Shown here one piece after another: positions 47,476 to 64,000 of a stretch of 64,000 nt of DNA. Within the stretch, counting starts at the first letter, position 1; each line of letters begins with the position of its first letter. The notes under the pieces are model-generated. The model searched no databases. It worked only from the letters and a program-made list of their open reading frames with translations, and had not been told where the DNA came from. The stretch lies in assembly GCA_030741355.1 (NCBI GenBank), contig JASLVM010000002.1, positions 51,932 through 115,931 on the forward strand, in the 5' to 3' direction. A program made the position numbers and the translations under genes. The DNA comes from Poseidonia sp. GTDB taxonomy: Archaea; Thermoplasmatota; Poseidoniia; Poseidoniales; Poseidoniaceae.

Positions 47476-50400
47476 ATGCGAGTGAACCATGTTGCGGTAG
47501 CGACGACTTTCACGGCCTTGATTTTGACCAGCTTTTTGATGGGTTTTGCCATCGAACAGCCTGCTGAACAACCGGTCTTGGACCACCACCCTGTTGAACA
47601 CACATCGGCTCGTTCAAGTTCAGCAGAGGTGTTTCTCGCCAGCGGCGGTTCAACTTCACACGACGAATTCTCGGGAGCTATTGTGGCTTCAGACAGTGGC
47701 TACTTCGTTGCAGGAGACGTCAACTCTTCAGCAGCCAGTTTGACTTTTGGCCCTCATTCTTATGTTCCAACCTCACCTTATAGCAATGGAAACGACTTCT
47801 TTTTGGCTTCATTGGACAACAACGGAGGTTGGAATTTCTTGGTGGGTGCTGACCACACGCAGGGTGGCGTCTCCTTCATGTCTGACGTGGCCTCTCATGC
47901 AGGCAACGCCATCGTAGCAGGCTACATGTACGGCCCCGTAGATTTCGGACAAACATCCCTCTCTTCAGCCGTTCAGTTTGATGCCTTCGTCGCCCAAACG
48001 GATGCGGCGGGCAACTGGATGTGGGCGAAGGGGTTCCAGACCCTTCCCAATTCATCAAGCGATTCCAGCATCCCACAAGCCCTCGCAGTTGACCAATTAG
48101 GAGACATCATCGTGGCCGGTTATTTCTCTGGAGAGACCGACTTTGGCGGAACCACCTTCAACGTGTCCAACCCAGAGATTTTCATCGCTAAACTTGACGG
48201 GGCTAACGGTGCACTCAAGTGGGTCGTCAAGGGAAGCGGCCCCGGAAACCAGGAGGTTACCGATGTCGTTGTTGATTCAAACGGTAACATTCATGTTTCT
48301 GGCGTCACGCAAAACAACGTTCTTTTTGGAACACAAAATTACGCCACGGTAGGGACCACCGATTCCTTTGTTGTCAAACTCTCAAGTAGCGGGGCCATCC
48401 AATCCATCACCGGCTACGGCATCCCCAATCAGGCCGTATCGCTCACCAACATGGCCGTCGACAATGCAGGCGACCTGTATGTAGGTGGTTCGTTTGAAGG
48501 TACAATGGCGAAGAACGGTTGGTCCATCACCGCCAACAAAGGTGGCGCAGACTTGTTCTTCATCAAAGAAGGCACGACATCGAACAACCAGTGGGCCGTC
48601 ACTGGAGGAAGCAATGCTGCCGATAGCTTGAGTGGCATGGAAGTCACCTCTCGAGGCGAATTGATCTTTACCACCTTTTTCGCCAGTTCCACGTTTACGG
48701 GGGGTACCAAGGGCGCTACACCCACCACCAGCAGTTGGACCACCATCAACGCTGATGCCCTCATGGGTGGATTAACCAATACCGGCGGTTGGTCGTGGTT
48801 GGACGTTACGGCCAGCAACGCTCTGGAACTCGGGTGGGGTATCGCCGTAAATTCAAGCGATATTGCGGCTGTGATGGGCTCGTATGCAGGTCCTTCTGGA
48901 AGCAACACCATCACGAAGGGAACCAACAGCGTATCAAGCACAGGTGGTTGGGACAACTTCGTTTGGGCACTTGACCCCTCAATGAAGGCTGACAGCGATA
49001 ACGATGGGGTGCCGGATGTATCCGACAACTGCCCCAATGACGTCAACCCGCTTCAAGGAAACACCGACGGTGACGCAAAGGGCGATGCTTGCGATCCCGA
49101 CGATGACAACGATGGCATCACGGACAACGCCCCCGATAACTGCCCCCGTGGAGGTGCAGCCAACTGGGGGTCGACACAGAACTTTGACGACCCAGCAAAC
49201 TCCACTGACTGGGACCGAGACGGCTGCAAAGACGATGTCGAGGACAACGACATGGACAACGACGGCATTGACAACGTCGACGACCAATGCCCTCGTTCCA
49301 CCTACCAACCGCCGCGTCCAAACTGGGTTTCTGATGAAATCACCGATGTTGATGGGGATGGATGTCGAGATATCGACGAAGATACCGATGATGACGGTGA
49401 TGGAGTTCCAGATTCCAGAGACGATTGCCCCACCGTGGTTGGAGACTCAACCCTCGGAGAGGAAGGTTGTCTGGACACCGACGGTGACGGATGGTCAGAC
49501 AATTTCGACGACTGCCCCACCGAATACGGAAATTCCACCTTGGCTGGCAAAAACGCCTGCCCCGATATGGATGGGGACGGTTGGGCCGATGTTGATGACG
49601 CCTTTGACGAAGACCCAACCCAATGGGCGGACGCAGATGGCGACGGTTACGGCGACAACACCGCCGGTAGCACACCGGATGAATGTCCATCGGTGGCAGG
49701 TACCTCCACCGCCGACCGACTTGGCTGTCTCGATACAGACGGGGATGGTTATTCCGACCCAGACAGTCAGTGGAACACCGAGTACGGCGCTGATGCCTTT
49801 ATCGACGATGCCACTCAATGGTCTGATTTCGACGGCGATGGTTATGGTGACAACTACGCCAACACCTCCTGGGACGACCGAAATCCATCCTGGCCGGGTG
49901 TATACCGAGAGGACGTTGTTCTGCAAGATGCTTGTCCGACCAAAGAGGGCACTTCTTGGCAAAACGGCCTGATCGGTTGTCCCGACCAAGACGGAGATGG
50001 TTGGTACAACCTCCAAGATGCATTCCCGAACGACGCCACACAATGGTCCGATATGGACGGCGACGGATACGGCGACAACATCTCTGGAAACGATGCTGAC
50101 CGGTGCCCGGAAATTGCTGGAACCTCCACCCTCGACCGGTTGGGTTGTGTTGACACCGATGACGATGGCTACTCCGACCCCGACATCACGTGGACGCCAG
50201 AACAAGGCGCTGATGCATTCATGGCCGACCCAACCCAATGGGCCGACCAAGACAAGGATTTCTTTGGCGACAACCCCGCAGGGGACCGAGCAGACGACTG
50301 TCCAACCGTTCGCGGAACCTCGTTCATTGACCGCTTTGGTTGTGAAGACAGCGACGGCGACGGCATTTCTGACGCCACCGCCGAATGGACACTGGAACAA

Positions 50401-50958
50401 GGCGCTGATGCATGCCCGCTTGCGTACGGCAACTCAAGCGCTGACCGCATCGGCTGCGTCGACACCGACGGAGACAACTACTCCGACCCAACACCTGAAT
50501 GGCGAGCAGCAGAGGGTGCTGACGCATATCCTGAAGACCCAACACGATGGATCCTCGAACCTGAAAGCGACGGAGCCCTCTTCGCATCCACCAATGTGCT
50601 CATCGGTGGTGGCGTCGGGCTCGTGGTCGTTCTCGCACTTGTTGGCCTATTCATGAGAGGTCGACGACCAAAGGCCGACAATTCGGCTTGGGAAGTTCCT
50701 CCCAACGTGGGCATGCCTAATTTCAACGCTCAACCCGCCGCAGGTGTTCAGCCAGGATATGCCGCACCGGTTTCGATGCCAAATTTCAACGCACAGCCTG
50801 CTGCCGTGGCTCAGCCAGCCTATGCCGCACCCGTTGCTGCACCCGTGGCTCAACCTGACCCTGCAAGGGAGTACTACAACAGCCTCCTCGCCCAGGGGTA
50901 TCCCCACGAAGATGCCGTACGGTACACACAGCAATACTTCAGCCAATTCCACGGATGA
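47476..50958 (+). CDS. Giant surface protein with SBBP-type beta-propeller repeats, TSP3-type repeats, a TM and a repeat-containing cytoplasmic tail
   Basis: It has an N-terminal hydrophobic anchor or signal. Repeated G(D/N)xxVAGY..G..DFG and DxF(V/I)xKLxxxG blocks are present, along with many DxDGDGxxD motifs. A TM (LIGGGVGLVVVLALVGLF) is followed by the tail. Confidence 0.8.
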   Translation: MRVNHVAVATTFTALILTSFLMGFAIEQPAEQPVLDHHPVEHTSARSSSAEVFLASGGSTSHDEFSGAIVASDSGYFVAGDVNSSAASLTFGPHSYVPTSPYSNGNDFFLASLDNNGGWNFLVGADHTQGGVSFMSDVASHAGNAIVAGYMYGPVDFGQTSLSSAVQFDAFVAQTDAAGNWMWAKGFQTLPNSSSDSSIPQALAVDQLGDIIVAGYFSGETDFGGTTFNVSNPEIFIAKLDGANGALKWVVKGSGPGNQEVTDVVVDSNGNIHVSGVTQNNVLFGTQNYATVGTTDSFVVKLSSSGAIQSITGYGIPNQAVSLTNMAVDNAGDLYVGGSFEGTMAKNGWSITANKGGADLFFIKEGTTSNNQWAVTGGSNAADSLSGMEVTSRGELIFTTFFASSTFTGGTKGATPTTSSWTTINADALMGGLTNTGGWSWLDVTASNALELGWGIAVNSSDIAAVMGSYAGPSGSNTITKGTNSVSSTGGWDNFVWALDPSMKADSDNDGVPDVSDNCPNDVNPLQGNTDGDAKGDACDPDDDNDGITDNAPDNCPRGGAANWGSTQNFDDPANSTDWDRDGCKDDVEDNDMDNDGIDNVDDQCPRSTYQPPRPNWVSDEITDVDGDGCRDIDEDTDDDGDGVPDSRDDCPTVVGDSTLGEEGCLDTDGDGWSDNFDDCPTEYGNSTLAGKNACPDMDGDGWADVDDAFDEDPTQWADADGDGYGDNTAGSTPDECPSVAGTSTADRLGCLDTDGDGYSDPDSQWNTEYGADAFIDDATQWSDFDGDGYGDNYANTSWDDRNPSWPGVYREDVVLQDACPTKEGTSWQNGLIGCPDQDGDGWYNLQDAFPNDATQWSDMDGDGYGDNISGNDADRCPEIAGTSTLDRLGCVDTDDDGYSDPDITWTPEQGADAFMADPTQWADQDKDFFGDNPAGDRADDCPTVRGTSFIDRFGCEDSDGDGISDATAEWTLEQGADACPLAYGNSSADRIGCVDTDGDNYSDPTPEWRAAEGADAYPEDPTRWILEPESDGALFASTNVLIGGGVGLVVVLALVGLFMRGRRPKADNSAWEVPPNVGMPNFNAQPAAGVQPGYAAPVSMPNFNAQPAAVAQPAYAAPVAAPVAQPDPAREYYNSLLAQGYPHEDAVRYTQQYFSQFHG
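50713..50832 (+). repeat. Two tandem 60-bp (20-aa) repeats in the cytoplasmic tail
   Basis: MPNFNAQPAAGVQPGYAAPVS is followed directly by MPNFNAQPAAVAQPAYAAPVA. Confidence 0.8.
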
Positions 50959-50976: not shown

Positions 50977-52604
<1,628 letters not shown>

Positions 52605-52705
52605 TCACACCTCTTGGTGTGTTGGCCTCCCCTAACAAAGTCCCTTTCTAATGGTTGTCCCTCTTTCATCTCCCCAACCATGGATTGAGAGGAGGAAGAA
52701 GGCGC

Positions 52706-53149
52706 TCAAAAGGAGCAAACGGTCAGGTATCGCTCCAGCCGTTCAACGCGACGTTGGCCGTTGTCATCGACTTCACTCATGGCCCGAATTGATTCTTCGA
52801 TCAGTGCATGCTGATCTTCTTGCAAACCGATAATTCGACGAAGGTGGTCCAACATGGCCCACTCGTCTTCACTGATGACATCGTCGTCAAGAGCGGCGAT
52901 GAGAGCTGATTGGTACGTGGTGGCGTCTCCCATGTGGTGACCTCCGTATTCACTGTCCTCATCAAACGGCCATGCTCCGTCCCCGGCAACAATCGCACGG
53001 CATTCGGCCGTGTCGGCCGGCGCCACACCGAGAGCTTGAGCAAGGATGCGAAGAATTTGCGCTTCGTCGTCGGTAACAATGGCGTCGTCAAAGGCGATAC
53101 GAAGGGTTTCGAGATAGAGATAGAGTCCTCGGGTAGGGTGCAGTGCCAT
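52706..53149 (-). CDS. TerB/DjlA-N-like two-repeat acidic protein (tentative)
   Basis: Two internal repeats are present: DDAIVTDDEAQILRILAQALGV and DDDVISEDEWAMLDHLRRIIGL. The ATG is at 53149; position 53179 is a TTG. Confidence 0.4.
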   Translation of the reverse strand: MALHPTRGLYLYLETLRIAFDDAIVTDDEAQILRILAQALGVAPADTAECRAIVAGDGAWPFDEDSEYGGHHMGDATTYQSALIAALDDDVISEDEWAMLDHLRRIIGLQEDQHALIEESIRAMSEVDDNGQRRVERLERYLTVCSF

Positions 53150-53257
53150 GATTTCACGTAGAGATGGCTCGTCTTTCAAACTTCGCTCTCGAGAGAGAAG
53201 AGGAAGTCAAACACTATGTAAGACAGATAATTACAGATTGTCATCATTTGCAACACA

Positions 53258-53264
53258 TTTATAT
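53258..53264 (+). promoter_or_regulatory. TATA-box-like element upstream of the RHH regulator gene
   Basis: TTTATAT sits in the only AT-rich patch of the divergent intergenic region, about 38 nt upstream of the ATG at 53302. Confidence 0.3.
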
Positions 53265-53301
53265 GCCCGCCGCCATAGTCTCATCTCACGAGGCAACCAA
53301 G

Positions 53302-53673
53302 ATGACCCAGCCAACCAGCGCCGTTTCCCTCCGAATCACGGAGGATGACCTCGCCTTGCTGGACGCACGTATTGGGATGGACGGCGCTCGAAGCCGTTCT
53401 GATGTTGTGCGTCTTGCCATCCAAGAATTCCTTCACAATCAACCCCTCTTGCAGGGCATGAAATCCGTTCGCATTCCACTTGGTCGAAACGACCAGGTCC
53501 AACTTGGCAAATTGTACGAACTCCAAGGCACCACTCCGGAGATCGCCGCCCAAGAAGGACTCAAATTGTACATTGAACAAGCGATTGACAAGATCGTTAG
53601 AGAAAACAAACTCGATGATGTTCTGGAGGCGTCCAGAGCAGCAACGACACCACGCAACGAATACCAAGAATGA
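53302..53673 (+). CDS. Ribbon-helix-helix (CopG/MetJ-like) DNA-binding protein
   Basis: VSLRITEDDLALLDARIG...RSRSDVVRLAIQEFL follows the RHH beta-strand/helix/helix pattern. The ATG at 53302 lies downstream of the AT-rich putative promoter. Confidence 0.55.
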   Translation: MTQPTSAVSLRITEDDLALLDARIGMDGARSRSDVVRLAIQEFLHNQPLLQGMKSVRIPLGRNDQVQLGKLYELQGTTPEIAAQEGLKLYIEQAIDKIVRENKLDDVLEASRAATTPRNEYQE

Positions 53674-53751
53674 ATTGGTGAGAGACTGGAGGGGATGGGA
53701 TGAATTGGCAAAACTCGGGCTACAACCTAAGTGATGCCACCCTTGGAGTGA

Positions 53752-53942
53752 TGCAGGACCGGCCTGTCCTGCAGAGCTTTGTCTCGTTGTGTGAGCGTGC
53801 CCGTCGTGCACGCCTTGGCCTTGGTTCCCAAAACCAAACACCCCCACACACCTCCCTGGACGACGGCCAGGGAGGCTCAGATTCCACCCCCGTCAGTTGA
53901 CGTGGTGGTTCCCCCGTGCCCAGCCCCCACACTTCTGGGCAC
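53752..53942. ncRNA. Candidate structured RNA or palindrome array (six consecutive hairpins); family unknown, strand undetermined
   Basis: Perfect stems are TGCAGGAC/GTCCTGCA, GCGTGC/GCACGC, TTGGTT/AACCAA, CCTCCCTGG/CCAGGGAGG and GTGCCCAG/CTGGGCAC, plus one imperfect stem. The loops CCGTCGT and ACGACGG are exact complements. Confidence 0.3.
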
Positions 53943-54004
53943 ATTGATTTCCATCGGTCAAGCCTGTGACCTTCATGCGAATCCTTTAGGAGGGTCGCCG
54001 CAGG

Positions 54005-56125
54005 ATGGCGGATATGAACGAGGGAGAAGAACTGGTGGATTCCTCCACCTACCCATTCCTTGCTCATGCCAAACCCCGACCCGGCCAGTTGGAGATGATT
54101 CAAGACGGCATCAAGGCTCTCGAAAAGGGAGGATACCATTTGGCAGCGGCCCCGACGGGGATTGGGAAAACGGCGGCCTCCTTGGCTGCTGCCCTTGAAG
54201 TGGCCAGCCAATCTCCTCAGAAGAAAACCGTGTTTTTCTTGACCTCTCGCCAAACACAGCATCGAATTGTCGTGGACACTGTTCGCCGCATCAATCAACG
54301 ACGAAAGGGCATGATGCCGGTTCGTTTGGTGGACATGGTTGGCCAAGCAGGCATGTGCATCCAGCCTTTTGCCAAGGAGTCGCCGTTGGTGTTCTCCCTT
54401 CTCTGCAGTCAGGCGAGAAAAACGAGGTCCTGTAAACCATGGATCACATCAGCCCCTGGACTCAAAGAACGCATTTTGTCCTCACCGCTTCACGTCGATG
54501 AATTGGTGGAGATTGCCAGAACCCACACGGCGAACGGTGAAGCGGCCCAGACCTGCCCTTGGAAAGCGGCAAGAGAAGCAGTAAGTGGCGCTGATGTTTT
54601 TGTTGGCGATTACAATCATCTCTTTGACGACGGCGTCAGGGAATCCAGCCTCAAAGCCATGGACCTCTCCTTGGAGGACATCATCATCGTGGTGGACGAA
54701 GCTCACAATCTCCCCGACCGTATTCGAATGACGCTTGAAAAACGACTGACGAGAACGATGATTCGCAACTCGCAAATGGAATTGGAAGAATACGCTGGGA
54801 TGCTGGCACAGGCGATGAATGCGCCAGGCGGAGAGGCTCTTTCCATGAGTCATGGTCTCGCCATGTGGGCTTTTGAGGTGGTCAAGGCCTCACGGGTTGG
54901 TTTTGATGCTCTCTTTTCCCAGTACCTTCGAAACCTCTCCGGAAGGGATGAGGAAGCTGAGGTTGCCATAGAGGACATCCTCAATGTCTTTCATCGAGCG
55001 TGCGATACCGTCGAGGGAAAAGCCGGACAACAACAACTCGATGCACCTTCCACATCGAAGCATCCGGTGGTTGATGCCGCTGTCCGTATCCACCAACTTC
55101 GGGACATTCTCTCCAGTGTCGATGTCGACATGGAAGCTGGCGACGACGGGAATCCGATGGAACCCAACGCCCACCGTGTGGCTGAGATTCTGGATTGCAT
55201 GCTCAAATTTGGGTCCACTCCAGCCTTGACCATGGTCTACGATACCAAAGGCAAAGACGGTCGAATTACAACCCATCTCCTCGACCCAGGGTTGGTCTCC
55301 AAGCCCGTGTTTGAACAATCCGCAGGTGCGATGTTGATGTCAGGAACGCTCTATCCCCCCAGCATGTACGCCAATATTCTGGCGCTCCCGCCCTCCTCAA
55401 CCACATCGGTGGCTTACCCGTCGCCCTTTGCAGCCATGAGAAGGCCGGTGCTCGTTGCAAAGAATGTCACCACGAAATACACCGAACGAAGCCCCGAAAA
55501 TACCCGAGCCATCCGGACCCATATCCAAGCCCTGATCGACGCGTCCCCTGGAAACGTGGCGGTGTTTGCACCGTCCTATGCCATGCTGAACGAGGTGGTC
55601 CTCGAAGGGCATTTCAACGGTGTTCGAGTGATGGCTGAAAGTCGTGAATGGACCAAACAAGACCTCGACCAGGTGGTTGACACCCTTCTGGAAGAGAAGC
55701 GTCATGGACGGAAGATTTTGCTGGCGGGTGTTTTTGGAGCCCGACTTTCAGAAGGCGTTGACTATCACAGTGGAGCGTTGGATGCGGTGGCCTGCATCGG
55801 CATCCCGAACTCGCCGCCTTCCGTCCTCTCAAAAGCACTCAAAACCTACGCAGAAGAGCGTTTTGGCCGGAATTTAGCATGGCGTTACACGGTTTCACAG
55901 CCGGCGATAAACGCCATCTTGCAAGCCATGGGTCGGCCGATTCGGTCCATAGGTGACCGAGCGCTCATCCTTCTCTTGGACCGAAGGGTCACCGACCGGA
56001 CATACGCCGGTTGTTTCCCATCAGACCTGCGCATGAACGACGCCAGCGATCATGATTCAACCCATCGGTTTGCTCGAAGATTTTTCGCCAAAGTACATCC
56101 CGACCGCTCCCTTGAGAAGGAATAG
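54005..56125 (+). CDS. XPD/Rad3/DinG-family Fe-S DNA helicase
   Basis: It has Walker A (AAPTGIGKT) and a DEAH box (VVDEAHNL). Four Cys lie between them (GMCIQP, LLCSQA, RSCKPW, QTCPW). The C-terminal motifs are QAMGRPIRS and R..DR. Confidence 0.8.
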   Translation: MADMNEGEELVDSSTYPFLAHAKPRPGQLEMIQDGIKALEKGGYHLAAAPTGIGKTAASLAAALEVASQSPQKKTVFFLTSRQTQHRIVVDTVRRINQRRKGMMPVRLVDMVGQAGMCIQPFAKESPLVFSLLCSQARKTRSCKPWITSAPGLKERILSSPLHVDELVEIARTHTANGEAAQTCPWKAAREAVSGADVFVGDYNHLFDDGVRESSLKAMDLSLEDIIIVVDEAHNLPDRIRMTLEKRLTRTMIRNSQMELEEYAGMLAQAMNAPGGEALSMSHGLAMWAFEVVKASRVGFDALFSQYLRNLSGRDEEAEVAIEDILNVFHRACDTVEGKAGQQQLDAPSTSKHPVVDAAVRIHQLRDILSSVDVDMEAGDDGNPMEPNAHRVAEILDCMLKFGSTPALTMVYDTKGKDGRITTHLLDPGLVSKPVFEQSAGAMLMSGTLYPPSMYANILALPPSSTTSVAYPSPFAAMRRPVLVAKNVTTKYTERSPENTRAIRTHIQALIDASPGNVAVFAPSYAMLNEVVLEGHFNGVRVMAESREWTKQDLDQVVDTLLEEKRHGRKILLAGVFGARLSEGVDYHSGALDAVACIGIPNSPPSVLSKALKTYAEERFGRNLAWRYTVSQPAINAILQAMGRPIRSIGDRALILLLDRRVTDRTYAGCFPSDLRMNDASDHDSTHRFARRFFAKVHPDRSLEKE

Positions 56126-56142
56126 ACCTCGTCCGAAGGTTC

Positions 56143-56637
56143 ATGTGGGCTCGTCAATTCCAAAAGCCCATGGACGAATGGCAACCGCTCGACATGACGA
56201 CCGAAGACATGCCTTCCACGCCACTTGAGCCGGTGATTGATGGCCTCTCCACAGACGCAGCAAATCTTCAGGCAGCCTTTGAGATGGCGAACACCCATCT
56301 GGACGAAGTTCGTGCTCGACATACGGAAGTCTTGGTGACCGCAGGCATGCTTCCAGAGACGGGTCTATCGGACCGACATCCTGAACGTGCCTTGGCTTGG
56401 ATTGTGGAGGGGATCAACGGACGCGTGGACCCTGATGGACTCAGCATTCCCCTTCTCGGCACCCACGAAGAAGCGATTCAACTTCACGTAAAAACCACGG
56501 AAGACGCCACGCTGGTCAAACTTGACATCCACGACCCTAATGGAGACCCACTTGTTCGAGAACTTCCCCTGCCTGCCGATGCAAACGCGACGCTTCAAGC
56601 CACCTTTTCAGAAGGTCGTCTTCATCTGCGCTGGTGA
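56143..56637 (+). CDS. Hypothetical protein, possibly with an HSP20/alpha-crystallin-like C-terminal segment
   Basis: 164 aa, starting 17 nt after the helicase stop. The C-terminus VKLDIHDPNGDPLVRELPLPADANATLQATFSEGRLHLRW weakly resembles the last strands of an ACD. Confidence 0.3.
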   Translation: MWARQFQKPMDEWQPLDMTTEDMPSTPLEPVIDGLSTDAANLQAAFEMANTHLDEVRARHTEVLVTAGMLPETGLSDRHPERALAWIVEGINGRVDPDGLSIPLLGTHEEAIQLHVKTTEDATLVKLDIHDPNGDPLVRELPLPADANATLQATFSEGRLHLRW

Positions 56638-56641
56638 AACA

Positions 56642-59600
56642 TCAACGCGGTGGAACCTTTTGGATTTGGGCGATCTCACCGCTCATTCGGTTCAACGCTT
56701 GAGCAGCGACATCCTGGTGTTGCGAACCCATCTCTTCACGACTGTAGCGAGCCATCTCGAAGGTGTTGTCGAGCGCAGTCAAAGCGTCCTCTGAGACACC
56801 TTGCAAGGCCTGACGGATGGCAAATTCGAATTCACGCACGGTTTCAAAGTCCCTCCGTAGGAATCCACGTTGCTGCAAGAGACCGCACAAGTCCTGGTAG
56901 CACGTGAAAATTGCTTCCCGTGTTGCATCGCCAGCGGCCAAAAGTTCGGCGGTGTAAGCAAAGACTTCAGCAGCATCTTTGAGCAAGTCATCGGCCAATT
57001 GCTTTCGTCGATACATGACCACGCCGCCGGCGACGAGGGCCGCCAATGCAAGCACGAGGAGGTACGACCACCATGGTGTTTCAGCCTGCGCTTCAGTAAA
57101 TTCATACTGCACCGCGAAGCCTTCACTTCGGAGTGTTTCGAAGCCTTGGATGCTTTGAGCAGAGAGCCGTGGGTCATTCACGATGATGTCCATGGTCAAT
57201 TCACCCCAAACATCAGCATCACCGTAAGGCGGGTCTGCCTCAAACACGAACGTAGCAACACCGTTTTCATCGGTCTTTGAACCACGGTTGGCAAGTTGAG
57301 ACTGGTTTTCATCGTAGAGGTACACCAAGACATCGATGACAGGTACGCCTGCACCCGTGTCTTCAGCGATCACGGTGAGTGAACCACCGACATTTTCCTT
57401 CTCACCCTCAACCACCTCAAGGAGGTTAACGGTGATCACCGCATCAACTTGCACGAAGACCGTCTGGCTGATGCTCGCAGCATTGAGGTAGAAGGTGTCG
57501 TTTCGTGCAACGTCGAGGAAGAAGTATTGCGAGCCCACGTCCAACCAGTACGGAGCCGTAGCGCTGAGCGAGAAATTCCCGTTCGACCACACGACTGCGT
57601 TTTCAGAGAAGCAACGAGCTCCTTCTCGACCGCTGGAACATTCGGAGCCGTTTCCAATGGTCAGCACGAGGTTTTCGAACACCTCACCCGAGCCACCGAC
57701 TTCCTGCACAGAACCGGAATAGAAGATTGGCTGGAAGACGCTGTCAGAACGAGTCACGACGTTGGTGTTTGAACCAGCATCCACCTGGATGATGACGTCA
57801 GACCAAACACGGACACCGCTTTCCGCATCGGCGGCAAGGTGGGCCTGCGTACCTTCAAACACCACCGAGATGGTGTGTTCTCCACGCTCCAAATCCATGG
57901 TTGCGGGCACCGTTGCACTCCACTCACCGTCGGCTCCGGTCGTGGTGGCAAAGAGGGTGTTGCCGTCGAGTTTGACAAGGAGTTCAAAGCCAACCAAACC
58001 ATCACGGTCCACGGTATCAAAGTCGTAGAGACGACCGCTCAATTCCCATGTATCACCGCGGGTGGCATCAATGCCGTCCTCAAACACCAGCGTGACCCAA
58101 GAGCGATGGGAGAGGAAGAACGTCGCGTTGCCTTCTCCTCCTCGATAGTAGCCTTGAGGTGGAGATTCGGCTACCAAGGTCCGATTGCCGAAATCAAAGA
58201 TATCCGGCACGACCCAATCAAAGGCGAATGCTCCTGTTTCATCGGTGGTTAGCGTGGCGATAACAATGCCTTCAACCACCAATTGAACCTCGTGGTTCGG
58301 TACGCCAACAAGCTGGTTGTCAACAACCGAACCGGTGATGGCCACCGTTTGATTCACCGCAACAGGCGATGAGATGTCCACCGTGACCAAGACGGGGCTG
58401 AAGATTTCCCACAGGCCACTGGCGTTGCTCGGGAGATAGGCCACTGTTCCAGTGAACCGAGTTTCCAAGACAACCGGGCCGAGCGGTGCATCGGCAGGCA
58501 CAGGATGCACGGCTGAGAATTCACCGAGTTCGTCCGTGGTCGTGTTGGTGAGCCATTGGCCACCAAGCCACACTTCAATGGTCAAGTTCGGCAGCGGGTT
58601 GTCAACCAAGTCGAGGAGACGCCCTTGGATGGTGATCGTTGTCTCACGGTCAGCATCACCGGTGGCGGTGAGAAGGAGAATCTTGGTAGGCACACTGACG
58701 TTGAATTCCACCGTAGCCGAACTGGGCTGGTAGTACTCTGGATTGTTGATATCACCGTAGCCAACGGGGTCAACCCATTCACGACCGCCTCGGAATTCGA
58801 CCGTGATTTGATGAGGGCCTGCTGCCGTGTCCTCTGGCAGTACATAGGAGAAGGTGTAAGCCCCTGAGACGCTGTCGGTTTCGATGCTCGCCACAGGAAC
58901 ACCATCAATGAGCAAGTGCACCACGGCGGTTGAGGGCACACCGTTGGTTTGAAGCACCAGGCCAAGGTCATCAAGCAGCGTGCCGTTCACAACCAGCAAG
59001 TCACCGGCAACCAAGACCGTTGGTGCATCAACGATGACGACGTCGGTCTCTCCAAGCACCACGAAGAACGAACTGGCGTTGGTACCGACGATACCTGTTG
59101 TTCCTGCGATGCCGGTATAATCGGCGTGAATACCCGTTGGACCGACACTCATGTTGGCCGGAACCGTGAGATTACCCCATGCTGAGCCGTTGGAGGCCGT
59201 CAACACCGTGATTTGGACCGGTGAAGCGCCATCAAGGGTAGAGGTAAGAGATACGACGACGCTTTGGTTCGCCAACGGCAAACCTTGGTTATCCCGAAGA
59301 AGGACCGAGAATTCAACGATTTCACCCCGAACGGTTCGGTCGTTCAGCGAAGGTTGACCAATGCCATCGAGCGATGGAAGGATGAAATTCATCACCGAGA
59401 AGCCACGTGAATCGAAGGTGGTGTTGTTCTGTGAGCCAACGTAGAAGTTCACGTTGGGGATGTAGGTGGCTTCCATCAGATGACTGCCGGCTGCGAAGGT
59501 TTCAGTCAAGCGAATCGTGGCATTCCAGAAACCATCCACACCAACCGTCCCACCGGTGGCGGTGAACCCGGTGGGTTGACCATCAATGGAGAACAAAACG

Positions 59601-62600
59601 TTGGCGTTTGACAAGACGCTGTTGTCCCGCTGGACCAATCCCGAACCGTTGTCAGACGTGATCTGTCCGCTGATGTTGAAGGAGGTCCCTGCAACAGGGT
59701 TGGCGGTGATGCTATCGACGACCATGAAGGTCAACGAGCGAACGGTGATGCTCGTGAGGTTGGCACTCGTTGACAGCAGGTCGGTCGAACCGTTGAACGA
59801 CATCTGAACCACGATGAGTCCCAATGGGTGGTCGTAGGGGACGTTGAAACTGAAGTTTGCAAAGCCTTCACCGTCTGTGGTTTGAGGTGAGAGCCAAGTC
59901 TCATGGAACTGCAAGGCCACCTCATAACTTGAGAGCGGGGCAAACATGTCTGACGCTTCAACGAGTTTTGCTGACATGTTGATGTCGTTACCTCGGTTGA
60001 TGACGATGGCGTTCAACGGTTGCAGGTTCTCCAGGCGCGAAACACCCATGACTTGAATCGGGGATTGGGCCGTTGCCGTCAGGTAGAACGGCGACGATTC
60101 GTTGACGACGGTGATCACCAAGGTGTGAGGGCCACGGGTCGTGCCGTTGCCAGCGGTGTCCGTGGGCACGGTCATGTTGAAACTGCCGTTGTTGGTCGTG
60201 GCGAAGTTGCTGAGGAGCAATTCCTCAGGATTCTCCAACCAGAAGACGTTCAAGCGAACGGCGGAGATGAGTTGACGGCTCGAGTTCTCGGCGTCCTCTA
60301 CTTGTCCGACGACGTTGAAGGGAACGCCCGCCGTAACCGTACTGGGAACGGAGGTGAGGGAGATGTCGCTGGTCACCTGCACGGTGACGTTGATGATGGA
60401 CGAATTGCCGTAGCGTCGAGCATTTCCAGCGCTCAACGCCGCAGTGAGGTCGTCCTGAACAACGATTCCAACGTCGTAGTATCCCGGAGCGATGGCCGAT
60501 GGCGTGAAGGCAAACGTTGCGTTTCCTTCAGCATCCGTTGTGGCTGTGCCGAGGCTTTGGTTGGTGTTACCGTAATCCCAGATGTAGTCGACACTGGCAC
60601 CACTGATGTTGGAATTGTCAGCGATGTCCGTGATTTTGGCGTTAAACGATACCGTGTCGTTCATCTCGACAATGTACGCCGGACGTTCAGCTTCAACCAC
60701 GACTTCCGTGATGATACCGCCCAGCGTTGAGATGAGCGTCGGTGGGGCCGGAGGCAGTGATGTATCAACGAAGGTGTAGAAAGCACCACCAACGGGAGCC
60801 TGGGTGAGGAAGTCAAAGTCCACAACAAATTCGTAGGCATCCGAAGGAAGGTTGGTCGGCATCCGAATGGGGATATCGAAAGTACCCGTGCTGTTGTTCA
60901 GCGTTGACTGAGCAATATCGATGGGGCCTTGTTCGGTGAACAGGCTCACACTGATGAGCGTGGTGTTGTTGAGAACCGGGGTCAAGTAAACAGCATCAAA
61001 CACATCACCTACGAGTCGAGTCGAGTTGCCCATAAACGTCCAGTCTTGAGCGATGGAAAGGTTCCATCCGATATCAGCCATCACGCGTATGGACCCAAAG
61101 CCTGTGGAAGGTTGGTAGAAGTCCGAACCGTTGAACGAGATGCCAATCGGGTAATCACCTGAGAGCAAATTGGCGTCGAGTGGAAGAGCGATTTCGAGAA
61201 GGTCGAGTTCGGGGTCGACCGTCGTGTTGAACCACGAACCGTTGAAGGTGAAGTCGTAATTTCCAAGAATGTCTGCGCCTGCAGCGATTCCTCGATGGTC
61301 GTTGATTTGGACCGTAAGCAGCGCATCTTGACCTCGGACCTGTGCGGAGTCTTGAACCACGAACGTAAGCGAACCGCGCAAGAAATAGGGTGGATCCACC
61401 GTGAGATCTGCATCATCCGTTGCCGGAAGGGTCGAAGGGAAAAAGCGGAGACGCGTCTCTATCTCGCCCGCAGGGACCATCACGTTGGTGGGCATCAAGA
61501 ACTGAATCGAGAAGGTTCCCGTAACGCTCAGATTGAACAATTCCTCCCATTCATTACCTGAACCGTTGGCACGGATAGCGAACTGCAGGTCACCTGCCAA
61601 AGCTGTTGGCGTGGTACCCAGAGAGAGGGCGCTGCCGTTGACCCATACGTCGTCGCCCAGTAGGATGATCTTCTTGTCGGCAAGAGGACCTTCAATGGTG
61701 GCCGTGAGGTTCGGTGCTTCGGTCACGTTGAGCACGATTGAGGTGGTGGTGGGATTGAGATGGAAGGTGGAGGGCGTTGAACCCGGCACCGATGTGTCTT
61801 GCCAACCTGAAAAGCCGAGGGTCGCCGACAAATTCCCAAGGGTCTCGGCCTCGCTGAGGTTGAGTGTGAGCGTCCAAGAACCACTGGCATCGGTTTGAGC
61901 GGAGAAATTCTGAGCTCCGTCGACCGAGGAGGTGTAGGCCAACCAGATGGTTTGGTTGGGCATGTTGAAGATTTCATCCGTCGGTTCTTGAGCGAGCACC
62001 AGGCGTCCTTCAAGCACCGTGGTTGCGCCAGCACCGGCGATGGGGGCGTTGATGGCGAGCGGTGCGGTGTGATTGAGCGTGGCGTTATCGGTGAGGTTCA
62101 CGAACCCATCGAAAATGACACCGTCGTGAGAAACATAGCCCGATTGACGATGTTCAAGGACGATGTTGTGCATGCCAGGTGCCGTTGGAGCAGCCGGGAA
62201 GCCGGTGAGGGTGAAGGTGCCGTTCGCATCGGTGATGTTCTCGTCGAGGAGGCGTTCTTGAGTGGCTCCAGCACCGGGGACGAACGGAGCATCGGCAACG
62301 GGCGTGAGGTAGGAAAGAACACGAATATCCTGAATGGGTGTACCGTTGGCAACGTAGCGAAGTTGGCCGGTAACGGTGATGGTCTCGGTACCATCACGAG
62401 CCACGGTGAGGGTGGAGATGGTTTGATTGACCACCTCAACCTCTTCGGCTGGCGGACATGGGTCAAACGGAATCCATCCCAGGTCCGTGTTGCCGTTTGC
62501 ACTGTTCTGCTGAAGGCGAACTTCCGACCATGTGGTTGCATCCGTGGAATAGACCGCATATCCATCGCCGGTCCAGGTGCCACCAACATAACCGGTTACT

Positions 62601-64000
62601 TGTCGTGCTGGGAGGCCGGCGAGACGCGCCATGGTGACAAAGACCGTGTTGAATTCACGGCAAGAGCCTTCTTTGAGAGCCTCGAGAACGTTGAGGGAAA
62701 CATCAACTGGACTGGTGGTTCCAGAACCGTTGTAGTTTCGTTTGAACTCGGTCGTAGCGTTACCGTTGATGATGAAATCTTCGAGCGCAAGCGCCGTGCT
62801 GTACGCGTCGTTCGCACCGGCTTCACTGATGATGGCTGCGGTGATGTTCCCCACGTAGGAGTACTCACTGCTGGCGTTCGTAAAGCGCTCATCAACCAGC
62901 AACTCGTAAGGGAAGCCCTGGCCGGGAACGGTGGTGGAGGCCAGAGTTGACCAGTCAAAGTAGTACTCTGGCTGTTCGAAGAGGACTTGGTCAACAGCGC
63001 CATCAACCATCGACAGAATATGGGTGTCGTTGGAGCGAGAGATGTTGGCTGTCGGCTCGAAATAAAACGAGATGTTCGAGTAGGAGGCGGGTGCGGGTAT
63101 CTGTGCCGAAGTGATCGGTTGAGTGAACTGGACGTTCCATTGGACGGTTGAATTGGCAAAGGAGACCGGTGCGAGGTGAGTGAAATTGCTCATTGGCGCC
63201 GTCACCGTCTCGGAGGGATGGACACTGTCAAGATGCGCATAGGTCGTTCCGGTGTAGAAATCGTTGGTGATGGTGCGCCATCGGTGGTCAAGATCGAGGT
63301 CGACCGTACCCGAGGTGTTGTTGGCGTAAAACACGACACCGGTGTTCATCACGTCGTCGGTGGGGTCAAAGGGATCGAACGGCGACCCAGCACAGTTCAG
63401 GAACCAGAAGATGTCAGGACATTCCGCACCATCCAGCATTCCACCGCCGTCGGTATCGGGGTTGGTCCAGTCCGTTCCGGTTTGGTTTTCGACAGCATCC
63501 GGAATGCCGTCACCGTCAAAGTCGTCGGGTTGAATATCGTCTGAAGGGTCGTTTTCTGGATTCGTTCCGTCAAAGTACTCGCTTCGGTCATCAACACCAC
63601 CTTGATCCGTGTCGTATGACGTTGAGGTCGTGACCCAAACGTCCTGAGAACCGTTCGTGATGCCAATGTAAATCAAATCACAACCGGTGGTGTTCTCGAA
63701 ATAATTGTTCAAACCATCGCCGTCATCGTCCAAGAGGTTGGTGCACGGTTCGTTGGGGTCGGTGTTGTCTTGAATCTCATCGAAGTCGTTCACCCCGTCG
63801 GCGTCGCTGTCTGGAATACTGGGGTTGGAGAACCAACCAAAGGTACCCAAAAGTTCCTGCCAGTCGGCCAAACCATCACCGTCGGTGTCTTCGTAGTCGT
63901 CGTCACAGTATTGCTGGGTTGAGGAGATGGTTCCTGCGGCTATGGCAGCGGTATGGCAGAAGGAACCGTTTCGATTGGCGACATCGGTGGCGGTACCGGA
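56642..64000 (-). CDS. Giant (>2450 aa) surface protein with TSP3-type repeats, a transglutaminase-like core, many beta-sandwich repeats, a TM and a DUF4129-like cytoplasmic tail; 5' end is outside the window
   Basis: The track 'M' at 63871 is a TTG, and the frame stays open to position 64000 (my translation: ...SGTATDVANRNGSFCHTAAIAAGTISSTQQYCDDDYEDTDGDGLADW...). The transglutaminase core is EGSCREFNTVFVTMARLAGLPARQVTGY. There are at least 8 T(D/G)xxGxxxF beta-sandwich units. The TM is WWSYLLVLALAALVAGGVVMY, and the tail includes FETVREFEFAIRQAL...FEMARYS. Confidence 0.8.
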   Translation of the reverse strand, partial: SGTATDVANRNGSFCHTAAIAAGTISSTQQYCDDDYEDTDGDGLADWQELLGTFGWFSNPSIPDSDADGVNDFDEIQDNTDPNEPCTNLLDDDGDGLNNYFENTTGCDLIYIGITNGSQDVWVTTSTSYDTDQGGVDDRSEYFDGTNPENDPSDDIQPDDFDGDGIPDAVENQTGTDWTNPDTDGGGMLDGAECPDIFWFLNCAGSPFDPFDPTDDVMNTGVVFYANNTSGTVDLDLDHRWRTITNDFYTGTTYAHLDSVHPSETVTAPMSNFTHLAPVSFANSTVQWNVQFTQPITSAQIPAPASYSNISFYFEPTANISRSNDTHILSMVDGAVDQVLFEQPEYYFDWSTLASTTVPGQGFPYELLVDERFTNASSEYSYVGNITAAIISEAGANDAYSTALALEDFIINGNATTEFKRNYNGSGTTSPVDVSLNVLEALKEGSCREFNTVFVTMARLAGLPARQVTGYVGGTWTGDGYAVYSTDATTWSEVRLQQNSANGNTDLGWIPFDPCPPAEEVEVVNQTISTLTVARDGTETITVTGQLRYVANGTPIQDIRVLSYLTPVADAPFVPGAGATQERLLDENITDANGTFTLTGFPAAPTAPGMHNIVLEHRQSGYVSHDGVIFDGFVNLTDNATLNHTAPLAINAPIAGAGATTVLEGRLVLAQEPTDEIFNMPNQTIWLAYTSSVDGAQNFSAQTDASGSWTLTLNLSEAETLGNLSATLGFSGWQDTSVPGSTPSTFHLNPTTTSIVLNVTEAPNLTATIEGPLADKKIILLGDDVWVNGSALSLGTTPTALAGDLQFAIRANGSGNEWEELFNLSVTGTFSIQFLMPTNVMVPAGEIETRLRFFPSTLPATDDADLTVDPPYFLRGSLTFVVQDSAQVRGQDALLTVQINDHRGIAAGADILGNYDFTFNGSWFNTTVDPELDLLEIALPLDANLLSGDYPIGISFNGSDFYQPSTGFGSIRVMADIGWNLSIAQDWTFMGNSTRLVGDVFDAVYLTPVLNNTTLISVSLFTEQGPIDIAQSTLNNSTGTFDIPIRMPTNLPSDAYEFVVDFDFLTQAPVGGAFYTFVDTSLPPAPPTLISTLGGIITEVVVEAERPAYIVEMNDTVSFNAKITDIADNSNISGASVDYIWDYGNTNQSLGTATTDAEGNATFAFTPSAIAPGYYDVGIVVQDDLTAALSAGNARRYGNSSIINVTVQVTSDISLTSVPSTVTAGVPFNVVGQVEDAENSSRQLISAVRLNVFWLENPEELLLSNFATTNNGSFNMTVPTDTAGNGTTRGPHTLVITVVNESSPFYLTATAQSPIQVMGVSRLENLQPLNAIVINRGNDINMSAKLVEASDMFAPLSSYEVALQFHETWLSPQTTDGEGFANFSFNVPYDHPLGLIVVQMSFNGSTDLLSTSANLTSITVRSLTFMVVDSITANPVAGTSFNISGQITSDNGSGLVQRDNSVLSNANVLFSIDGQPTGFTATGGTVGVDGFWNATIRLTETFAAGSHLMEATYIPNVNFYVGSQNNTTFDSRGFSVMNFILPSLDGIGQPSLNDRTVRGEIVEFSVLLRDNQGLPLANQSVVVSLTSTLDGASPVQITVLTASNGSAWGNLTVPANMSVGPTGIHADYTGIAGTTGIVGTNASSFFVVLGETDVVIVDAPTVLVAGDLLVVNGTLLDDLGLVLQTNGVPSTAVVHLLIDGVPVASIETDSVSGAYTFSYVLPEDTAAGPHQITVEFRGGREWVDPVGYGDINNPEYYQPSSATVEFNVSVPTKILLLTATGDADRETTITIQGRLLDLVDNPLPNLTIEVWLGGQWLTNTTTDELGEFSAVHPVPADAPLGPVVLETRFTGTVAYLPSNASGLWEIFSPVLVTVDISSPVAVNQTVAITGSVVDNQLVGVPNHEVQLVVEGIVIATLTTDETGAFAFDWVVPDIFDFGNRTLVAESPPQGYYRGGEGNATFFLSHRSWVTLVFEDGIDATRGDTWELSGRLYDFDTVDRDGLVGFELLVKLDGNTLFATTTGADGEWSATVPATMDLERGEHTISVVFEGTQAHLAADAESGVRVWSDVIIQVDAGSNTNVVTRSDSVFQPIFYSGSVQEVGGSGEVFENLVLTIGNGSECSSGREGARCFSENAVVWSNGNFSLSATAPYWLDVGSQYFFLDVARNDTFYLNAASISQTVFVQVDAVITVNLLEVVEGEKENVGGSLTVIAEDTGAGVPVIDVLVYLYDENQSQLANRGSKTDENGVATFVFEADPPYGDADVWGELTMDIIVNDPRLSAQSIQGFETLRSEGFAVQYEFTEAQAETPWWSYLLVLALAALVAGGVVMYRRKQLADDLLKDAAEVFAYTAELLAAGDATREAIFTCYQDLCGLLQQRGFLRRDFETVREFEFAIRQALQGVSEDALTALDNTFEMARYSREEMGSQHQDVAAQALNRMSGEIAQIQKVPPR

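Follow-up and report, generated by a model that had tools for sequence, protein, structure and literature searches.

A 331-bp gap between two genes of Poseidonia sp., a Marine Group II (MGII) archaeon, is likely to hold a gene for a small protein, with a transcript that is a conserved structured RNA in its own right and may have a dual function. The gap spans positions 53674–54004 of the 64,000-nt stretch of DNA analyzed here (the window), and lies between a gene for a ribbon-helix-helix (RHH) protein and a gene for an XPD/Rad3-family helicase. A first-pass annotation of the window had described six hairpins (H1–H6) in this gap and no convincing open reading frame (ORF). We found that a small ORF (sORF) of 66 amino acids (53700–53900, forward strand; MNWQNSGYNLSDATLGVMQDRPVLQSFVSLCERARRARLGLGSQNQTPPHTSLDDGQGGSDSTPVS) is conserved in every homolog and covers H1–H5. 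Since these hairpins lie inside a conserved ORF, the gap is not non-coding, and its truly untranslated parts comprise only positions 53674–53699 and 53901–54004 (or to 54013). As judged from the homologs, two constraints are superimposed: one preserves the reading frame and the amino-acid motifs, and the other preserves the base pairs and the synonymous sites. The sORF, together with the hairpins in it and just after it, is referred to below as the element.

The most far-reaching form of this reading would be a true dual-function RNA. Here, a stable and highly structured RNA, which may correspond in MGIIa to the abundant orphan RNA Tan1 (see below), would have a role of its own through its kissing-loop fold, for example as a scaffold of a ribonucleoprotein or as a regulator, and would also encode the 66-amino-acid protein, acting with the RHH regulator and the XPD helicase. 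Along nearly all of the RNA, the coding sequence and the fold would coincide. We put this forward tentatively, as a possibility; from the selection on structure and on synonymous sites, we infer that the fold may have an extra RNA-level role.

The small ORF is conserved as a coding sequence

The sORF is preceded by a near-invariant leader (53676–53699, forward strand), UGGUGAGAG-N3-GGAGGGGAUGGG, which includes a Shine-Dalgarno (SD)-like GGAGG at 53688–53692, 7 nt before the AUG. The GAGGGGATGGGA of the leader was exact in all homologs, the diverged L047, L050, L060 and L134 included (locus numbers are ours), and GGAGG-type motifs with spacers of 7–10 nt precede many other genes of the window. 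The AUG of the sORF was retained although its distance from GGGA varies by 0–3 nt. Each homolog was translated from the AUG that follows the invariant GAGGGGAUGGGA. The sORF was open over 60–67 codons in 67 of 67 distinct homologs, including the most diverged (L047, L050, L060, L134 and L092), while the other two frames contained stops in 64 of the 67. L047, L050, L060 and L134 were too diverged for nhmmer, or gave weak nhmmer matches, and their sORF was still open. The ratio of non-synonymous to synonymous divergence (dN/dS) was 0.54 in the sORF frame, compared with 0.94 and 0.95 in the shifted frames. In the alignments, indels within the sORF were multiples of 3, and those after the stop codon were of 1–2 nt. 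The sORF proteins have in common the motifs DAT[LF], QDR, (A)LRxRARxA and a C-terminal G[GD]SDSTP[VA]S; in L047, (A)LRxRA(R)xA is retained through different codons. Thus, the open frame, the closed alternative frames, the dN/dS and the SD spacing comparatively support a genuine small ORF, the coding half of a dual-function RNA.

These data bear directly on a purely non-coding structured small RNA (sRNA), such as an MGIIa counterpart of Tan1, in which the ORF would be an untranslated by-product of conserved GC-rich sequence. The first-pass annotation had offered a novel sRNA of this kind as an explanation, which fails in that form because H1–H5 lie in a conserved, SD-led ORF of 66 codons. Such an RNA would agree with the strong covariation and the constrained synonymous sites described below, with a mostly disordered peptide that matches no protein family, and with the abundant 229-nt structured non-coding RNA (ncRNA) reported in MGII archaea (PMC5069720). 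We consider it improbable in view of a frame that is open even in deeply diverged homologs while the other frames are closed, the difference in dN/dS between frames, the triplet indels, the conservation of SD and AUG despite spacing shifts, and the amino-acid motifs kept by different codons in L047.

The product of the sORF is already listed as a hypothetical protein by public gene callers, and had no family match in Pfam, NCBIfam or PADLOC. AlphaFold2 predicted a single helix (residues 9–38) with disordered tails, at a low-confidence mean predicted local distance difference test score of 61. On this model the protein would consist of a central basic helix, carrying the LRxRARxAR motif, and disordered acidic tails rich in Ser and Thr. 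An example of its Arg-limited fragments is LGLGSQNQTPPHTSLDDGQGGSDSTPVS. Judging from the homologs found, the protein is confined to Poseidoniales. Frameshifting or readthrough was rejected, the alternative frames being closed in 64 of 67 homologs and the indels after the stop codon not being multiples of 3; by eye, no canonical X XXY YYZ site for a programmed −1 frameshift was seen upstream of H2 or H4.

Selection on the RNA

Covariation was counted in an alignment of 62 sequences (A2) over eight helices: hairpin A (a hairpin early in the sORF), H1–H6, and a kissing helix formed between the loops of H2 and H4. In slid controls, the 3′ partners were moved by 1–3 columns. In the real alignment 87% of the pair cells were paired, compared with 35–43% in the slid controls, and changes on both sides were present in 47 of 69 pairs, compared with 15–26. 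The covariation score was 0.274, against 0.06–0.09 in the slid controls. The observed values of pairing and covariation were reached by none of 500 shuffles. The RNA structure postulated in the first-pass annotation is thus upheld in relatives, where the helices covary strongly across 62 homologs.

The same annotation had pointed out that the loop of H2, CCGTCGT (53801–53807), is a perfect reverse complement of the loop of H4, ACGACGG (53860–53866), and that the two might kiss. The complementarity is exact, and the proposed contact gains weight from its covariation: the 7-bp complementarity persisted through 15 loop combinations, in which 102 of the 105 positions are paired, a level reached in 0 of 20,000 permutations. 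In A2 the kissing helix was 97.9% paired, and 3 of its pairs had changed on both sides. A synonymous CGU>CGC change (Arg) in the H2 loop was coupled to a GAC>GGC change (Asp>Gly) in the H4 loop. Judged by eye and without a tree, this coupled pair appears in at least three separate lineages: in L007, in the clade of L032, and in L100/L120, for which L092 is a G–U intermediate. Several of the kissing-loop changes, this coupled pair among them, are unexplained at the protein level.

Synonymous divergence was compared across the same genome pairs for the sORF and its two flanking genes. It was 0.04, 0.12 and 0.34 in the sORF, 0.40, 0.59 and 0.76 in the helicase gene, and 0.22, 0.41 and 0.68 in the RHH gene. 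The values of the sORF were thus 2–10 times below those of the flanking genes, while non-synonymous divergence was similar in all three. Low synonymous divergence at similar non-synonymous divergence is direct evidence of selection on the RNA itself.

From A2 we built a covariance model, which found exactly one copy per locus. It also scored sequences held out from the alignment well above a sequence-only hidden Markov model: 99 versus 31.5 bits for L060, 49 versus 30.6 bits for L134, and 31 bits versus no match for L047. In L060, hairpins A, H1, H4 and H6 were recognizable with changed sequence. When the forward strand was folded alone, its minimum free energy (MFE) was −135.9 kcal/mol, compared with −118.7 ± 5.9 kcal/mol for dinucleotide shuffles (z = −2.9), and 1 of 100 shuffles folded as well; the first-pass annotation had named this comparison as a check, and the fold came through it. 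The reverse strand gave z = −2.45.

An ordinary small-protein gene, with functionless hairpins that arise from GC-rich codon usage and chance palindromes, would fit the evidence for the ORF and a single-sequence fold whose z is only −2.9. The likelihood that this is all there is to the gap is low, given the excess of compensatory changes (47 of 69 pairs, against 15–26 in the slid controls), the paired synonymous substitutions in H1 (see below), a loop–loop complementarity that holds through 15 variants, the reduced synonymous divergence, and the presence of stems of unrelated sequence in the held-out lineages.

The hairpins

Direct reading of the sequence placed H1–H6 exactly where the first-pass annotation had them, and added hairpin A, which was absent from its list. 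All seven are on the forward strand. Hairpin A (53706–53739) is formed by three stacked stems, begins 6 nt after the AUG, and has both-side changes in 8 of 11 pairs; L047 and L060 have a hairpin of unrelated sequence at its position. H1 with an outer stem extension covers 53745–53780 (inner stem 53752–53773). Both sides have changed in 12 of its 13 pairs, and it is preserved by paired synonymous changes (CAG>CAA with CUG>UUG), while its stem sequence is wholly different in the L031 clade and in L060. H2 (53795–53813), with a stem of GCGUGC/GCACGC and the loop CCGUCGU at 53801–53807 as one kissing strand, encodes the conserved RARRAR motif. H3 (53821–53837; UUGGUU/AACCAA; both-side changes in 4 of 6 pairs) is dispensable, having been lost by an in-frame deletion in the L031 clade that takes up 12 columns in alignment A1 and 18 in A2, both multiples of 3. 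H4 (53851–53875) has a 9-bp stem with both-side changes in 6 of 9 pairs, and its loop, ACGACGG at 53860–53866, pairs with that of H2. H5 (53884–53908) is a bulged hairpin that contains the UGA stop codon of the sORF (53898–53900) at its loop/stem junction; 7 of its 9 pairs have changed on both sides, and its stem sequences differ in L020, L032, L044 and L050.

H6 (53916–53942) lies in the 3′ untranslated region. It has a conserved GC-rich stem of 8 bp, with an invariant GUGC...GCAC, is 98.8% paired, and shows both-side changes in 5 of 8 pairs. Its loop always contains CCCC(C)AC. L060 retains H6 with a changed stem, and indels in and after H6 are of 1–2 nt. The stretch that follows is weakly U-rich, with only short U runs (AUUGAUUUCC here and AUUUUACAG in L060). 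H6 is probably an element of the transcript 3′ end or of its stability, or a binding site.

Two further sequence features lie among the hairpins. CCCCCACAC occurs twice, at 53841–53849 and 53924–53932, as had been reported before. The first copy falls within the ORF (Thr-Pro-Pro-His), and the L031 clade lacks it; the second belongs to the loop of H6, where CCCC(C)AC is kept in nearly all lineages. The partner of this second copy could be the G-rich leader or a protein. Between H4 and H5, GGCUCAGAUUCC (53873–53888) encodes Gly-Ser-Asp-Ser, and is the same in the deeply diverged L047, four synonymous sites included. In the 62-sequence alignment it is conserved and not invariant, with variants such as GACUCUGAUUCC, GACUCAAAUUCC and GACCCUGCCUCG. 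This conservation suggests that GGCUCAGAUUCC may be a single-stranded RNA motif with a function of its own.

Several other pairings were considered and rejected. The MFE fold joins the G-rich leader to the 5′ strand of H5 in a long-range helix, which is disrupted in the L032 clade, whereas H5 covaries. RNAalifold paired the leader with AATCCTTTAGGAGGGTCG, a motif upstream of the helicase gene, but all columns involved are invariant, and in L047 this 3′ motif has remained with the helicase. The register of a closing helix between 5′ UGGUGAG and CUCGYUG is not conserved between clades. An alternative pairing of H2 with H6 through their shared GUGCCC is contradicted by changes of H6 in L096 and L142 that are unmatched in H2. 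A specific anti-SD partner of the leader could not be singled out, the predicted pairing being spread over several C-rich tracts.

Distribution and linkage to the RHH gene

Throughout Poseidoniales, the element has the XPD helicase gene as a neighbor and keeps a genetic link to the 3′ end of the RHH gene. A scan anchored on the helicase, with one genome per species, yielded 53 loci, nearly all of them carrying the label Poseidonia, Poseidoniaceae or Poseidoniales. By blastn, all but 6 of the 53 loci had the gap, of similar length, between their RHH and helicase genes; three of the six (L003, L008 and L030) are cut at a contig end, and the other three (L047, L050 and L051) are too divergent for blastn yet carry the element. 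The nucleotide identity of the gap was 67–97%, often above what is expected from the identity of the RHH protein. Synteny of RHH gene, element and helicase gene was found in 50 of the 53 loci, while L003, L008 and L030 end at the contig edge. The stop codon of the RHH gene lies 0–10 nt before the conserved GGTGAGAG, or overlaps it.

Metagenomes were also scanned by motif, independently of the helicase, and this added at least 30 true homologs. Among the matches listed, the RHH gene was directly upstream in 29 of 30 true homologs, the exception (L109) being cut at the contig end, and the helicase was found in 25 of 30, the rest being cut by the contig end. In viral contigs, 120 matches of 14-mers were all due to chance, and none was confirmed by nhmmer.

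L047 and L051 are rearranged loci, in which the RHH gene has been inverted along with the element and both sit downstream of the helicase gene; AAYCCTYWTAGRAGGGTCGC stays upstream of the helicase. Since the RHH gene and the element move together, the element belongs with the RHH gene. This arrangement overturns the proposal of the first-pass annotation that the gap is a 5′ leader of the helicase gene. A long structured leader or riboregulator of that gene would suit an element that lies directly upstream of it on the same strand in nearly all loci, and is very unlikely given the inversion in these two loci, a helicase that keeps its own promoter-like motif, and a variable spacer of ~40 nt between H6 and that motif.

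The remaining proposal is that the hairpins are palindromic DNA operators of the neighboring RHH repressor. In its favor, proteins of the RHH type recognize DNA sites that are repeated or inverted, and the RHH gene is always adjacent. It is hardly credible for eight stems unrelated in sequence, inside a coding sequence, with a covarying complementarity that joins two different loops and not half-sites. The helices also contain 249 G–U cells, which are meaningless for duplex DNA; this point is weak alone, given 176 A–C/C–A cells. What thus stands of the earlier interpretation is the conserved RNA structure, the complementarity of H2 and H4, and the lack of an Rfam family, while none of its three explanations holds as it was put.

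Two loci carry bacterial labels. L001 (NZEQ01000074.1, labelled as a Verrucomicrobiales metagenome-assembled genome, MAG) and L051 (CAXRJJ010000032.1, labelled as a Yoonia sp. MAG) have the Poseidoniales locus of RHH gene, sORF and XPD gene, with a helicase identity of 100% and 47%, respectively. Both are almost certainly mis-binned archaeal contigs.

A model for the transcript

Under the preferred reading, a small-protein gene with a structured transcript, the sORF RNA would be either co-transcribed with the RHH gene or initiated through a TATA-like box located at the stop codon of that gene. The leader would then be either a 5′ untranslated region or a segment between this TATA-like box and the transcription start. 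The transcript would have seven hairpins, with A and H1–H5 in the coding region and H6 just after it, and the kissing of H2 and H4 would tie the fold. Such a compact fold may stabilize the short RNA and gate access to the start region; most of the G-rich SD region is predicted to pair, with several different C-rich tracts as partners. Alternatively, the fold may give the transcript a second, non-coding role, as in a dual-function RNA. H6 would mark the 3′ end of the transcript, and the peptide probably works with the RHH regulator, the helicase or both.

Several points weigh against this model. A dN/dS of 0.54 corresponds to moderate constraint only, and much of the peptide is of low complexity and predicted to be disordered. 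Among the closer relatives, part of the persistence of the ORF could be a by-product of RNA conservation, with synonymous sites constrained. The deepest lineages (L047, L060 and L134) lack the kissing loop, which is hence not universal, while the invariant G-rich leader has no established partner, its predicted pairings being spread over several C-rich tracts. Finally, the transcription start, the 3′ end and the translation of the sORF are all deduced from sequence.

Relation to known RNAs and significance

The closest kind of known system is a dual-function or small-protein-encoding RNA, and the element may be related to the orphan RNA Tan1. Tan1 (Thalassoarchaea ncRNA 1) was described from a Red Sea metatranscriptome as a highly abundant structured RNA of 229 nt in the MGIIb lineage (Hou et al. 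2016, PMC5069720). That report gives it a complex conserved secondary structure and its own transcription start, presents it as non-coding, and leaves its function unexplained and without an Rfam family (PMC5069720). As described there, Tan1 resembles the element in belonging to the same archaeal order, in size (229 nt versus about 225–275 nt) and in lacking an Rfam match; it differs in its lineage, MGIIb, and in being reported as non-coding. A relationship between the two is possible, the two agreeing in lineage, size class and lack of an Rfam match.

Dual-function and small-protein-encoding sRNAs include SgrS/SgrT, RNAIII/delta-haemolysin, SR1/SR1P and AzuCR in bacteria, and the spRNAs of Methanosarcina mazei in archaea (PMC12612679, PMC8915982, PMC11456600, bioRxiv 10.1101/2025.10.28.685009). 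With these the element would share a short transcript (about 250–280 nt, as predicted), and it shares a small ORF and a constraint at the RNA level that is independent of coding. It differs from them in that its structure overlaps almost the whole ORF and does not form a separate domain, and in that 66 amino acids is longer than most. It also has no homology in sequence or structure to the described members, and is not known to have a base-pairing target or a regulatory activity.

The mRNAs of hok-type type I toxins likewise hold a small ORF in a fold that is conserved by covariation, and this fold is thought to control translation and stability. The element resembles them in combining a small ORF with an mRNA fold conserved by covariation. 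It differs in a hydrophilic peptide with no transmembrane stretch, in that no antisense RNA was found, and in a core, syntenic locus that is not a mobile addiction module. A hok-like toxin was rejected, the peptide being polar or charged throughout with no hydrophobic stretch of ~18 residues. A type II toxin–antitoxin pair would agree with the adjacent RHH gene, but the sORF has no toxin family match, and throughout the order its locus is a syntenic part of the core genome. More broadly, a defense-system or toxin–antitoxin reading found no support, with no match of the sORF in PADLOC, Pfam or NCBIfam and only an RHH domain in its partner.

The archaeal RNase P RNA (RF00373) and signal recognition particle (SRP) RNA (RF01857) are archaeal RNAs of a ~300-nt size class, with several helices and tertiary contacts, as is the element; it differs in having no match to them at E ≤ 10, and the CR-I/CR-V and helix-8 motifs were not seen in it by eye. 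Both were rejected as identities of the element, since it has no Rfam match and canonical copies exist elsewhere in MGII genomes, where the report of Tan1 found RNase P RNA and SRP RNA through Rfam (PMC5069720). In a search of Rfam 15, the sole match in the window was a tRNA-Lys, with none at E ≤ 10 in 53300–54400 and none in five divergent homologous loci. The first-pass annotation had seen no signature of SRP RNA, RNase P RNA, C/D or H/ACA RNAs by eye, and had named a clean Rfam hit as a refutation of its claim; none turned up.

The interest of the element lies in the extent to which coding and structure overlap, and in the ecological importance of its host lineage, the most abundant planktonic archaea. 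A coding sequence of 200 nt is constrained at the level of both protein and RNA, and a covarying loop contact of 7 bp is kept through coupled synonymous and non-synonymous changes. To our knowledge, an overlap of coding and RNA structure as extensive as this is well documented only for a few bacterial and viral RNAs, and hardly in archaea. Conserved lineage-specific elements of this kind are among the few handles on the biology of MGII archaea. If the RNA is abundant or identical to Tan1, an orphan ncRNA would become a coding structured RNA in partnership with an RHH regulator and an XPD helicase. Two practical lessons also follow: “non-coding” gaps that bear hairpins can hide small genes, and conservation of synonymous sites can reveal functional mRNA structure.

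The helicase gene and its promoter-like motif

The XPD/Rad3-family helicase gene (54005–56125, forward strand) matched Pfam DEAD_2 and Helicase_C_2, as well as NCBIfam rad3 (E = 4e-51), the last of these matches falling below the curated cutoff. Upstream of it, and outside the structured RNA, lies AATCCTTTAGGAGGGTCG (53980–53997, forward strand), a promoter/operator-like motif conserved in all loci. The motif is partly palindromic and sits ~29 nt before ATG 54014 (region 53980–54016), and a variable spacer of ~40 nt separates it from H6. A similar motif, AACCCTCATAGAGGGTCGC, is found upstream of the helicase in L047 (5925–5961), where the RNA element lies elsewhere. Since the rearrangements of L047 and L051 have left such a motif with the helicase, that at 53980–53997 is taken to be the promoter or operator of the helicase itself. 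The conserved GGAGGGTCG, downstream of a TATA-like box, could be an operator.

ATG 54014 aligns with the start codons of distant clades, where the first ATG, 54005, is not conserved. By this alignment, 54014 is the more likely start of the helicase, and its mRNA is possibly leaderless. The helicase (54014–56125) also matched the PADLOC model of the type IV CRISPR-associated DinG (E = 1e-84), with no Csf genes or CRISPR context; this score most likely reflects general similarity within the XPD/DinG family.

The RHH gene and the surrounding sequence

The RHH gene (53164–53673, forward strand) encodes an RHH_1/CopG ribbon-helix-helix protein (Pfam RHH_1, E = 9e-6). In many loci its protein homologs align only from about residue 44. 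The N-terminal 45 residues may therefore be untranslated, the true start then possibly being an internal Met near residue 47.

The closest public contig, NZEQ01000074.1 (L001), was compared over 52000–57000. It has 92–100% identity to the window from ~53700 onward (sORF, helicase and beyond), while upstream, in the RHH gene and its neighbors, identity is only 55–89%. This drop points to a putative recombination breakpoint near the junction of the RHH gene and the sORF, or to a hypervariable RHH region.

A crude and unreliable ORF tiling of the window left further uncovered stretches, of up to 510 nt. By domain search, the window also contains genes for the archaeal RNA polymerase subunits B, A′ and A″. 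Two very large predicted surface proteins are encoded at 56642–63871 (reverse strand, 2409 amino acids) and 47476–50958 (forward strand, 1160 amino acids), with transglutaminase, MG2/alpha-2-macroglobulin-like, Big_1 and TSP3 repeat domains.

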